A stretch of DNA of 63,390 nucleotides, the filler included, from Rhabdomonas costata (lineage: Eukaryota): NCBI GenBank assembly GCA_019059605.1. It is 45 parts of 45 records of this genome, joined end to end, with 100 filler letters (N's around TTAATTAATTAA, not from the genome) between each part and the next. Parts side by side here need not be neighbours in the genome. Positions count along the whole stretch, not along the records: positions 55,031 to 56,340 come from JAHMHO010019816.1; positions 56,441 to 57,750 come from JAHMHO010019817.1; positions 57,851 to 59,160 come from JAHMHO010019818.1; 42 more parts are not named here. One strand, 5' to 3'. The notes beneath the pieces were generated by a model. It worked only from the letters and a program-made list of their open reading frames with translations, ran no database searches and was not told the origin of the DNA. Positions 55,357-57,906 of the stretch are shown here, piece after piece (the stretch's first letter is position 1; the number at the start of each line of letters is the position of its first letter). Made by a program: the position numbers and the translations under genes.

Positions 55357-56954
55357 CTTTGGGGGGAATGCGAGGGGGGGGGGTCAGCGGCAGACTGCTT
55401 CACATATGTCCCACAGATCTGCGACAGTACCAGCTTTGCATGGAAAGCACACCAAGACTGACAACTCGTTTGGGAGACCTCGTTTTGCATTTGGCTTGCA
55501 CTCAAACAGTCATTTCCGCCTTATGTACGTGTGTGTGTGGGCACATAGCGCGCTGGCTGTTGCCTGACAGGCCGTTGATGACCACTGTAAACTGACGGGC
55601 ATACGCTGACTGTTGGCCACGGGTGCCCGCAAGAACCACCTGGGCGGGGGTATGTGTGTGTCTCAATCTTGACAGTAGGGAGAGATGACACCCGCGGACC
55701 TGCTGGCAATGTGGCGCTCCCGTCGCTTGGGGACCGGGATGTCGCGGTGGGATTTATTGCCTCTCGCCAACGTGGGTGTGAACAAGCACTTCAAAACGCC
55801 CGTTGATAACCTCCATGAACAACCCCGCAATTGGAATATTTGTATTGGAACATCTCGGTGGTATAATAATTCAACTCCTCAAATGGTGAAAGGGTTCTTC
55901 TCGAGTTTTGGTTCACAGCCTCGCTCCAAAAAGTCGCCGAAAACCCGGTGAGCGCAACAATTTTATTAAATATCGCCATGGACACGTTTATTTCACCCAC
56001 CCAGAAAATGGTCATTGACGTCGCTTTCAAGGTATCCAATTGCCGACGTTGCACAGAAGTGAATAAAACAAACATTCATCGTGCACAGAGAAGGAACTCC
56101 AAGACAGAAGAATCCAGTGAAAGAGCCTCATTTTACCGTTTGCTACCCTTCAGCCCAGGTTTTTCGATCATTCATACACACCTGTCCCTTTGGGTCACAC
56201 AAAGCATTTTCAATTGTTTGTCGCGATCCCACTTTGAATACGCAGCTGACCAAATTGGTGAATACATCCGGGAAAGTGTTCGCGTTTTGCCACAAAACCG
56301 ATGCACCCAAGAGAGGGTGAAATCTCGGAGTCCACAGCGANNNNNNNNNNNNNNNNNNNNNNNNNNNNNNNNNNNNNNNNNNNNTTAATTAATTAANNNN
56401 NNNNNNNNNNNNNNNNNNNNNNNNNNNNNNNNNNNNNNNNTGTGGGGTTGGCCCTGTCAGGGGGTTTGCAATTTCTGAGAATAAGGCCAATCACGGCATG
56501 AAGGTAAAGGGGGTTCGCTCCCGGCATAGGAGTTGCACAGCTCGCCGCAGTCTCAGTGTAAGGGACTGTGCTTCCCTCTGATCAAATGGATGTTCGAGAT
56601 GATGGTGTAGTGCAGTGCAGGGGGACGCAGGCACGGTGTAGCACTTAGACAGGGGGATAACGGAGAACAGGTCGATCCTGTGAAAAAAGCGAGCTCGGTG
56701 GAACAGGCTCGCGGGGGATGCGCGTCATGTGCCAGAGCACGGTGTTGGAAAAGGGGGTCGCGCATCATGAGGTGCAGGTGGTGCTGATGGCCTACAGGAT
56801 GTCATCTTCGGCGAATCAGCAGGGACAGAGGAGGCGGTGCCCTTGTTCTTATGCTTAGGCAGGGGGCAATGTCCTTGACCCCAGGCTTGGGCGCAGGAGC
56901 AGCAGGCGGAGCAGCAGGCGAGATAACAGAGTTAGTGCCATTGTTCTTCTTTTT

Positions 56955-57290
56955 GCTCTTCCTATCAAATGGAGACGAAGCAATGGCAGAACCTCTTCGT
57001 CGAACCCAAAGCTGTTCCGCACAAGTTTCAGAAACAGTTTCTGCGAGAGCTTGTGAACGGTGGAGTCATAATTTGACATGTCGATTTCAAAGAGAGTCCC
57101 AAAGTCATGCATTTGGGCATAAAAGTCAGACAGCGAATCAATAGTGGCACCAGCAGCAAACAGCACGGGCTTTTGCAGCCCATCCCTCACACGGTGCAGG
57201 AATCCTGCACCAAGGTCATGACGGGCCCTGTGAACGCCGTGACATGCGGCGCATACTCTTCACCCGTAGAACTTTTCGCACTTCACAACA
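56955..57290 (-). pseudogene. Degenerate RNA-dependent RNA polymerase-like fragment (candidate endogenous (+)RNA viral element)
   Basis: VKCEK (motif F-like), TAFTGPVMTLVQD, PVLFAAGATIDSLSDF and FEIDMSNYDSTV (motif A, DxxxxD) lie in the expected order across frameshifts; motifs B and C not found. Confidence 0.55.
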
Positions 57291-57906
57291 TCTCCACCTT
57301 GCACCACTTCCAATATCATACATATCATAAGCAGCGGGCGTAGGTGCAGTGCCCTTGTCCTCAGGCTTGGGCACAGGCGTAGGCCCGAACATATTTCCGC
57401 AGAATTTTCCCTCCACGATGCTCGCATGCGCTGTGCCATTCGTGTGTCATCAGAAGATGCATCAGTAACGGCCTCGCCTCTGGCGCAGTCCTCTTTCGAC
57501 GAGACCGACAGAAACTCCAAATCGCCCTCACTCCCTCGCATATCTTTTGACAACAGAACAGCGCATGACCTCTCCCCACAATGCGTCCAACAATCTTCTT
57601 CCATTCATCCCAATGGTCAAGCAAGTCGTCAGAAGAACAAGCCTCCATTGACCTGAGCGTAGATGTGGTACAGGTTACACGCCACGCTCAAGAAGACTCG
57701 AGATCAACAACAGCACCTTCTGCACAAAACTTGTAAAGACCCACCAACACNNNNNNNNNNNNNNNNNNNNNNNNNNNNNNNNNNNNNNNNNNNNTTAATT
57801 AATTAANNNNNNNNNNNNNNNNNNNNNNNNNNNNNNNNNNNNNNNNNNNNTGTGTTTTTTTCTTTTTCTCCCCTGTATTTCTCTTTCGCTGTGTGCTTAC
57901 ACGCAG

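Follow-up and report, generated by a model that had tools for sequence, protein, structure and literature searches.

The DNA analysed here, called the window below, is a stretch of 63,390 bases from the Rhabdomonas costata assembly GCA_019059605.1, in which 45 separate contigs of 1306-1326 bp are joined by linkers made of 44 N, TTAATTAATTAA and a further 44 N. Since the window joins unrelated contigs, the sole real context of the feature under study, a broken stretch resembling RNA-dependent RNA polymerase (RdRp) genes of positive-strand RNA viruses, is its own contig at 56441-57750. The stretch lies on the minus strand, where homology to viral RdRps runs from 57315 to 56993 and possibly, as a weak tail, down to 56960, and repeat units stand on either side of it (Table 1). 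An earlier note on this DNA had given the fragment an extent of 56855..57648; the fragment does lie inside this interval, and the homology proved to be narrower. For reasons set out below, we consider the fragment to be a decayed non-retroviral endogenous viral element (nrEVE), with a probability of about three in four.

The polymerase fragment and its lesions

Read on the minus strand, the fragment passes from one frame to another (Table 1), and the peptides listed in the earlier note were all recovered: DVVKCEKFYG in frame 2, ending at 57263, EEYAPHVTAFTGPVMTLVQD in frame 0, at 57261..57202, and GLQKPV...HKLSQKL in frame 2, from 57181. Two frameshifts had been counted there; the broken reading stands, and the number of frame changes rises to three, since KWCKVEM, in frame 0, adds an earlier segment. 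The changes lie near 57289, 57262 and 57200-57202, so that piece 2 is flanked by one on both sides (57289 and 57262), and none of the three sits in a homopolymer of at least 4 bases. Eight codons after ...YA are also deleted in frame, and the deletion covers R248 and I250 of motif F, which are invariant among the 11 relatives over which invariance was counted (alignment A2). Motif F is partial, having kept K-x-E-K, whose K234 and E236 are nearly invariant in A2, and over the whole covered range four of the six A2-invariant residues are retained (G262, G288, D312, D317), R248 and I250 being the two lost. The KWC of piece 1 corresponds to K225, W226 and C227, invariant in a second alignment (A1), and motif A has kept both catalytic-site aspartates (family D312 and D317). 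Set beside the RdRp frames of the relatives, which are without internal stops in 10 of 10 cases, these lesions bear out the earlier description of the fragment as decayed.

Homology to RdRps is collinear from motif F through motif A, in the order given in the earlier note, and is cut at both ends inside the contig. At the 5' end, the residues that precede KWC in the homologues have no counterpart at 57316..57326. At the 3' end, the tail at 56960..56992 may hold the last viral residues or may already be flank, and the junction lies somewhere inside it. Motif B (SG..T..N) and motif C (GDD), which had been reported as missing from a truncated copy, are indeed absent from all six frames of the contig, as are the conserved N-terminal motifs of the family (WNxHFPxARR). 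The loss in motif F and the truncation therefore rule out polymerase activity; the fragment is derived from a polymerase gene but is itself no polymerase, and it has no reading frame of its own.

Table 1. Features of the fragment, its contig and other contigs, in window positions
Feature	Position	Strand	Remarks
Contig holding the RdRp fragment	56441..57750		stand-alone, 1310 bp, unplaced
Upstream repeat unit	57327..57382	-	frame 1 codes PTPVPKPEDKGTAPTPAAY
5' junction, short AT-rich filler	57316..57326	-	between upstream repeat unit and first viral residues
RdRp piece 1, YWKWCKVEM	57289..57315	-	frame 0; matches conserved KWC..(M/L)F just before motif F
RdRp piece 2, VKCEKFYG	57263..57286	-	frame 2; motif F core K-x-E-K
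RdRp piece 3, EEYAPHVTAFTGPVMTLVQD	57202..57261	-	frame 0; eight codons absent after ...YA
RdRp piece 4, LHRVRDGLQKPVLFAAG...FEIDMSNYDSTV...GFDEE	56993..57199	-	frame 2; profile positions 282-351
Motif A, EIDMSNYDST	57059..57088	-	intact
Uncertain tail, VLPLLRLHLIG	56960..56992	-	not confidently aligned; profile match ends at GFDEE
12-nt motif, repeated twice	56896-56919	-	precedes downstream unit 1
Downstream repeat unit 1	56863..56902	-	32/40 bases identical to upstream unit
Downstream repeat unit 2	56815..56861	-	tandem with unit 1; 70% identical to upstream unit
437-residue open frame	26825-28135	-	fills whole contig
F-box and LRR_6 frame	28236-29483	-	one frame filling contig
Retrotransposon gag domain, PF03732	38114-38620	-	
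Open frame with P-type ATPase-like stretch	45329-46015	-	

When the 75-residue piece encoded at 56960-57184 (minus strand) was compared by phmmer with 1,835,955,588 representative proteins, 6 matches were obtained at E<=1e-3. Three are RdRps that are homologous along most of the query: P0001 (E 1.3e-11, 60% identity), P0003 (1.1e-5) and P0006 (1.9e-4). The others, P0002, P0004 and P0005, were set aside as noise because they are, by eye, apparent tandem-repeat proteins in which a stretch of only ~30 residues is matched several times. An E of 1.3e-11 among 1.84 billion proteins led us to reject a chance resemblance. P0001 and P0003 both pass the Pfam cut-offs for RdRP_1 and RdRP_2 (40.6 and 34.7 bits; 31.7 and 27.8 bits), and in both the series of motifs is complete, with SG..T..N and GDD present. 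P0001 is recorded on a contig of exactly 1310 bp, the length of the fragment's own contig, which may be coincidental, and it is encoded nowhere in the window. In the converse direction, a tblastn search of the whole window with the closest relative, P0007, matched the fragment only; the match is spread over two frames, and its joint E is 2.6e-24.

In the comparison with RdRp profiles that the earlier note had proposed, the longest frame of the fragment alone matched RdRP_2 over profile positions 179-248 of 440, with an E of 0.0027 and a score of 17.1 bits; its closest relatives pass the cut-offs, as given above. A family profile of 628 positions was then built from five relatives (A1). With an X placed at each break, the fragment matched positions 236-351 of this profile at 122.9 bits; taken singly, frame 2 gave 68.4 bits (positions 282-351) and frame 0 gave 21.4 bits (positions 232-283), and the six frames of the contig held no other match. 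The profile match is split over two frames, and the motif-F piece, in a third segment, was read by homology.

Along the aligned residues, the fragment is identical to P0007 at 70 of 116, to P0009 at 57 of 116, to P0003 at 54 of 116, to P0010 at 50 of 116 and to the RdRp of locus L004 at 52 of 105, with 19-26 identities over 103-117 residues for five distant relatives. A tree of the shared region (11 rows; L002 was omitted because it is identical to P0009) placed the fragment inside a close clade of six with support of 98/99, the branching order within the clade being unsettled, and P0007 was its nearest neighbor by path length. Searches with the fragment in other collections gave only chance matches in PDB (phmmer with the 75-residue piece, E>=0.77) and no match in PHROGs or, using the single fragment, among IMG/VR viral contigs.

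Reverse transcriptases, from which the fragment had been distinguished by motif, were rejected as its source: no RVT family appeared among Pfam matches at E<=10 in six frames, and the family profile found no reverse transcriptase in PDB. A cellular protein was likewise rejected, as no cellular family was matched at a meaningful E and only sub-threshold Pfam rows (E 0.13-0.14) were seen. All 57 PDB rows matched by the family profile are RNA-virus polymerases or polyproteins (best E 2.8e-4).

Intact relatives and tombus/noda-like affinity

An exhaustive scan and a second search with P0003 together yielded P0001/P0007, P0003/P0008, P0006, P0009 and P0010, that is, five relatives among 1.84 billion representative proteins, all of metagenome-type source. 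Twelve loci were taken for comparison, L001-L006 from metagenome contigs and L007-L012 from IMG/VR viral contigs; L007 and L008 are the same as L001 and L002 in length, match position and layout of open reading frames (ORFs), and L009 shares its stop context and RdRp length with L003. Pfam RdRP_1 was matched by 9 of 11 relatives, and RdRP_2 also by 9 of 11.

Wherever a close relative has upstream sequence, its RdRp frame runs on directly from the frame before it, the two being parted by one in-frame stop and an adjoining GG (TAG GGC in L001/L007, TGA GGG in L002/L008 and TAG GGG in L003/L009). In L005 the context is TAG GGA. Because the RdRp lies in frame behind this single stop and GG, we read the arrangement as stop-codon readthrough, by which, judging from the layout, the RdRp of these viruses would be made. 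The upstream proteins of L001, L002 and L003 are mutually homologous (E 1e-22 to 1e-50), and the close clade has its RdRp 3'-terminal on contigs that reach 9.3 kb, preceded, in at least one member, by a protein of 1295 residues with a RING finger. In the 9.3-kb relative this protein, P0011 (L003:3419-7303), has a C3HC4 RING finger at residues ~416-468, recognized both by Pfam (zf-C3HC4_3, E 1.9e-10) and by phmmer in PDB, where the RING domains of CBL-B, cIAP and TRIM21 were matched at E from 2e-6; a proline-rich linker follows the RING at residues ~553-591. A RING E3-like domain is unusual in a replicase-associated protein of a positive-strand RNA virus. Excerpts of a preprint (bioRxiv 10.1101/2025.02.13.637936) refer to RING-finger 'auxiliary' genes of soil RNA viruses. 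PDB sequence searches with the other ORFs of the relatives gave no match.

Among the distant relatives, L006 and L010 encode a tombus-type coat S domain (PF00729, E ~1e-22) downstream of the RdRp, and L011 carries a viral or chroparavirus-type methyltransferase. The RdRp frame of L004 (L004:1-1567) opens only at profile position 159, after 740 nt that are closed in all three frames, and P0006 diverges from the family exactly at the expected motif C; L004/P0006 could represent a further endogenised copy, or one that is defective in some other way, or may have a different genome layout. L005 (L005:1-5232) has three long frames in one register, separated by two TAG stops (TTA TAG GCA and GTA TAG GGA), which could reflect double readthrough or a host code that reads TAG.

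To place the clade among known viruses, fold comparisons were made with an AlphaFold model of the relative P0003, not of the fragment (mean predicted local distance difference test score 72, predicted template modelling score 0.75, first 112 residues disordered). Against PDB, Foldseek found pestivirus NS5B first (E 1.6e-11), followed by norovirus, jingmenvirus and hepatitis C virus polymerases. Against BFVD, the best matches were RdRps of unclassified Riboviria sp. (E 2.4e-21, 20% identity). The named rows among the best 50 BFVD matches were mostly Tombusviridae or tombus-like, together with two noda-like rows and Providence virus. They include Soybean yellow mottle mosaic, Groundnut rosette, Maize necrotic streak, Maize chlorotic mottle, Red clover necrotic mosaic and Maize white line mosaic viruses, which we take to be members of the Tombusviridae. 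In the ESM Atlas, all clusters nearest to P0003 were viral RdRps of Kitrinoviricota or Pisuviricota.

The relatives thus resemble Tombusviridae and the tombus-like and noda-like viruses (Kitrinoviricota) in their fold neighbors and in the in-frame stop and GG before the RdRp, and the coat S domain of the two distant relatives is shared with Tombusviridae. They differ in several respects: identity of the P0003 model to tombus-like and noda-like polymerases is only 13-23%, the relatives score better on RdRP_1 and RdRP_2 than on RdRP_3 (PF00998, the tombus family), and the close clade has its RdRp 3'-terminal, in at least one member behind the long RING-finger protein. RdRP_3 was matched at E<=0.01 by 1 of 11 relatives (P0003 reached E 0.042, its 13 bits falling short of the cut-off, 27) and was not matched by the fragment. 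Notwithstanding this, fold neighbors and the layout of a stop followed by the RdRp support the tombus/noda-like label that had been given to the fragment, and the label therefore holds.

Flanks and origin of the fragment

The repeat units beside the fragment are degenerate, and the likeness of the best pair (32 of 40 bases) exceeds the maximum of 27 matches seen in 100 dinucleotide-preserving shuffles. They would code for Pro/Lys/Ala/Thr-rich peptides (PKPEDKGTAP and similar), and no frame through them stays open. A tblastx comparison of the contig with six viral loci gave a significant match only at 56996-57255, the flanks did not match the relatives' other ORFs once composition was corrected for, and both an upstream ORF of 108 residues and the repeat unit were absent from IMG/VR viral contigs. 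A viral origin of the flanks is unsupported, since their low-complexity, proline-rich matches vanish under composition correction. Insertion into a degenerate tandem-repeat locus would be the simplest picture of this arrangement. Around the 3' end of the viral piece there is also a 16-nt inverted repeat, 81% complementary (56928-56943 / 56981-56996 and 56950-56965), whose arms enclose an A-rich run. This repeat may have been left by the joining event or may have arisen by chance.

On this picture, ~330-360 nt from within the RdRp gene of a positive-strand RNA virus of tombus-like type would have been copied into DNA, inserted between the repeat units of a degenerate tandem-repeat locus in the host, and left to drift as neutral DNA, so that decay would postdate integration. 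Retroelements exist in the assembly, as shown by a retrotransposon gag domain on another contig (E 9.4e-6; its 26.2 bits exceed the cut-off, 24.1). The copier is therefore presumed to have been the reverse transcriptase of a host retroelement, probably with template switching or end joining. We infer that the contig belongs to the chromosomes of the nominal organism. Its trinucleotide make-up ranks 22nd of 45 among the window contigs and is typical of them, which is weak evidence that it belongs to the same genome. Frameshifts and stops are the usual criterion by which endogenous viral elements (EVEs) are told from exogenous viruses, as stated in excerpts of two reports (PMC7594059, PMC12548735).

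Several observations weigh against an nrEVE. Its sole support is one unplaced contig of 1310 bp, which by blastn and tblastx has no similarity to the other 44 contigs, and the search for paralogs that the earlier note had suggested was negative: neither blastn, tblastx nor tblastn found a second copy among those 44. On its own the fragment stays under the RdRP_2 cut-off (17.1 against 27 bits), and a word-index search with a 134-residue frame against 5.8 billion proteins, confined to longer ones, gave no match. Pfam found nothing in any flank frame, and no host gene is recognizable there. Finally, without correction for composition, the proline-rich linkers of two viral relatives faintly match the flanking repeats (E 0.018-0.067), so that a viral origin of the flanks keeps a small likelihood.

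Some of these observations would suit a contig that is real and virus-derived but lies outside the chromosomes of the nominal organism, either because it comes from an EVE-bearing contaminant or co-cultured eukaryote, or because it is chimeric or mis-assembled; in the chimeric variant, viral cDNA or a defective viral RNA would be joined to unrelated sequence. A 1.3-kb unplaced contig, one of many alike in size, with no identifiable host gene in its flanks and with repeats slightly like the relatives' proline-rich linkers, is in keeping with this. We nevertheless regard it as unlikely: in composition the contig does not stand out from the other 44, its lesions suit old DNA better than a replicating RNA, and one repeat unit is found on both sides of the viral piece, so that insertion into one locus fits better than a random chimera. 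An exogenous, replicating virus that only appears broken through sequencing or assembly errors has in its favor that close relatives are known as intact virus contigs and that indel errors are possible in small low-coverage contigs. However, both ends of the homology fall within the contig, non-RdRp sequence continuing for another 429 and 519 nt, none of the six frames holds WNxHFPxARR or motifs B and C, the eight missing codons include invariant residues, and the frame changes avoid homopolymers of at least 4 bases. This explanation is close to refuted.

The element might also be integrated and in use, for instance by templating antiviral small RNAs directed against related viruses or by belonging to a host locus that is transcribed, which would be compatible with an nrEVE. 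For arthropods, small RNAs derived from EVEs and the co-option of EVEs are on record in excerpts of two reports (PMC10636211, PMC13643977); the window supplied nothing in support. Against such use, no open frame runs through the element, the motif-F loss and truncation exclude polymerase activity, and a single copy was seen in the window, and we judge it quite improbable. Overall, these results remain most consistent with a decayed nrEVE.

All that the window shows on the host are general eukaryote marks. One contig is filled by a single frame in which an F-box (E 4.6e-4) is combined with numerous LRR_6 (RNI-like) repeats (E 1.1e-44), and Pfam searches with 70 further window ORFs returned only a weak Kelch match and the retrotransposon gag. 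Neither Rfam families nor tRNAs were found in the window (0 matches each). Another contig is filled by an open frame of 437 residues that matched no Pfam family and had no homolog among longer proteins, the scope of that search. A further frame contains a stretch (...CCRVTPMQKARVV...GDG) that we take to resemble a P-type ATPase hinge; it matched no Pfam family at E<=0.001 and is probably one exon of an intron-bearing gene.

Known endogenous elements and host assignment

The fragment can be compared with EVEs of RNA viruses known from microbial eukaryotes. The dinoRNAV EVEs of Symbiodiniaceae are likewise RdRp fragments of positive-strand RNA viruses in scaffolds of microbial eukaryotes; in excerpts of their description (PMC10235124), RdRp and capsid EVEs are mostly isolated and incomplete, have cellular flanks, lie near retroelements, and are taken as infection fossils and as a link to the host. 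The present case differs in that the fold neighbors of the fragment's relative are tombus/noda-like and that only one copy was seen. The window lacks the dinoflagellate spliced-leader relic by which retroposition was recognized in that work. In Leptomonas pyrrhocoris, a tombus-like virus sequence has also been endogenised in a protist, taken as a sign of long association, according to excerpts of PMC10496375; in that case the host is also known to carry the cognate exogenous virus, whereas the relatives of our fragment are host-less environmental contigs. The RdRp-like EVEs of Perkinsus olseni, as excerpted from PMC12548735, are similarly polymerase fossils in a protist with almost no known viruses, but they are Mononegavirales-like, thus negative-strand, while the fragment comes from a positive-strand RNA virus.

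Elements of this kind are well known, and the particularity of the fragment is its source, a tiny, unclassified, host-less clade with an unusual upstream protein. No description of the source clade or of the fragment was found in the literature covered, which did not extend to supplementary tables.

Most RNA viruses known from metatranscriptomes are without a known host, and EVE matches are one of the few accepted routes to host assignment. Such matches in cellular genomes have been used for host inference, as described in excerpts of the preprint cited above (bioRxiv 10.1101/2025.02.13.637936). The fragment links a small, unclassified tombus-like clade to a eukaryotic assembly, and we tentatively propose, at somewhat less than an even chance, that this fossil provides the first link to a host for an orphan clade of positive-strand, tombus-like RNA viruses, which is known only from a few environmental contigs and has its RdRp behind a stop that looks leaky and, in at least one member, a RING-finger domain in the replicase-associated protein upstream. 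If the contig is chromosomal, the clade had a natural host in this eukaryote's lineage, and perhaps has one there today, and P0007, the nearest intact relative at 60% identity, would be a candidate present-day virus of the host's kin. Non-functional in itself, the element has its value as a record of contact between a virus group and a lineage, and if the host is a protist with a poorly known virome, it would offer a concrete lead towards P0007-like viruses.

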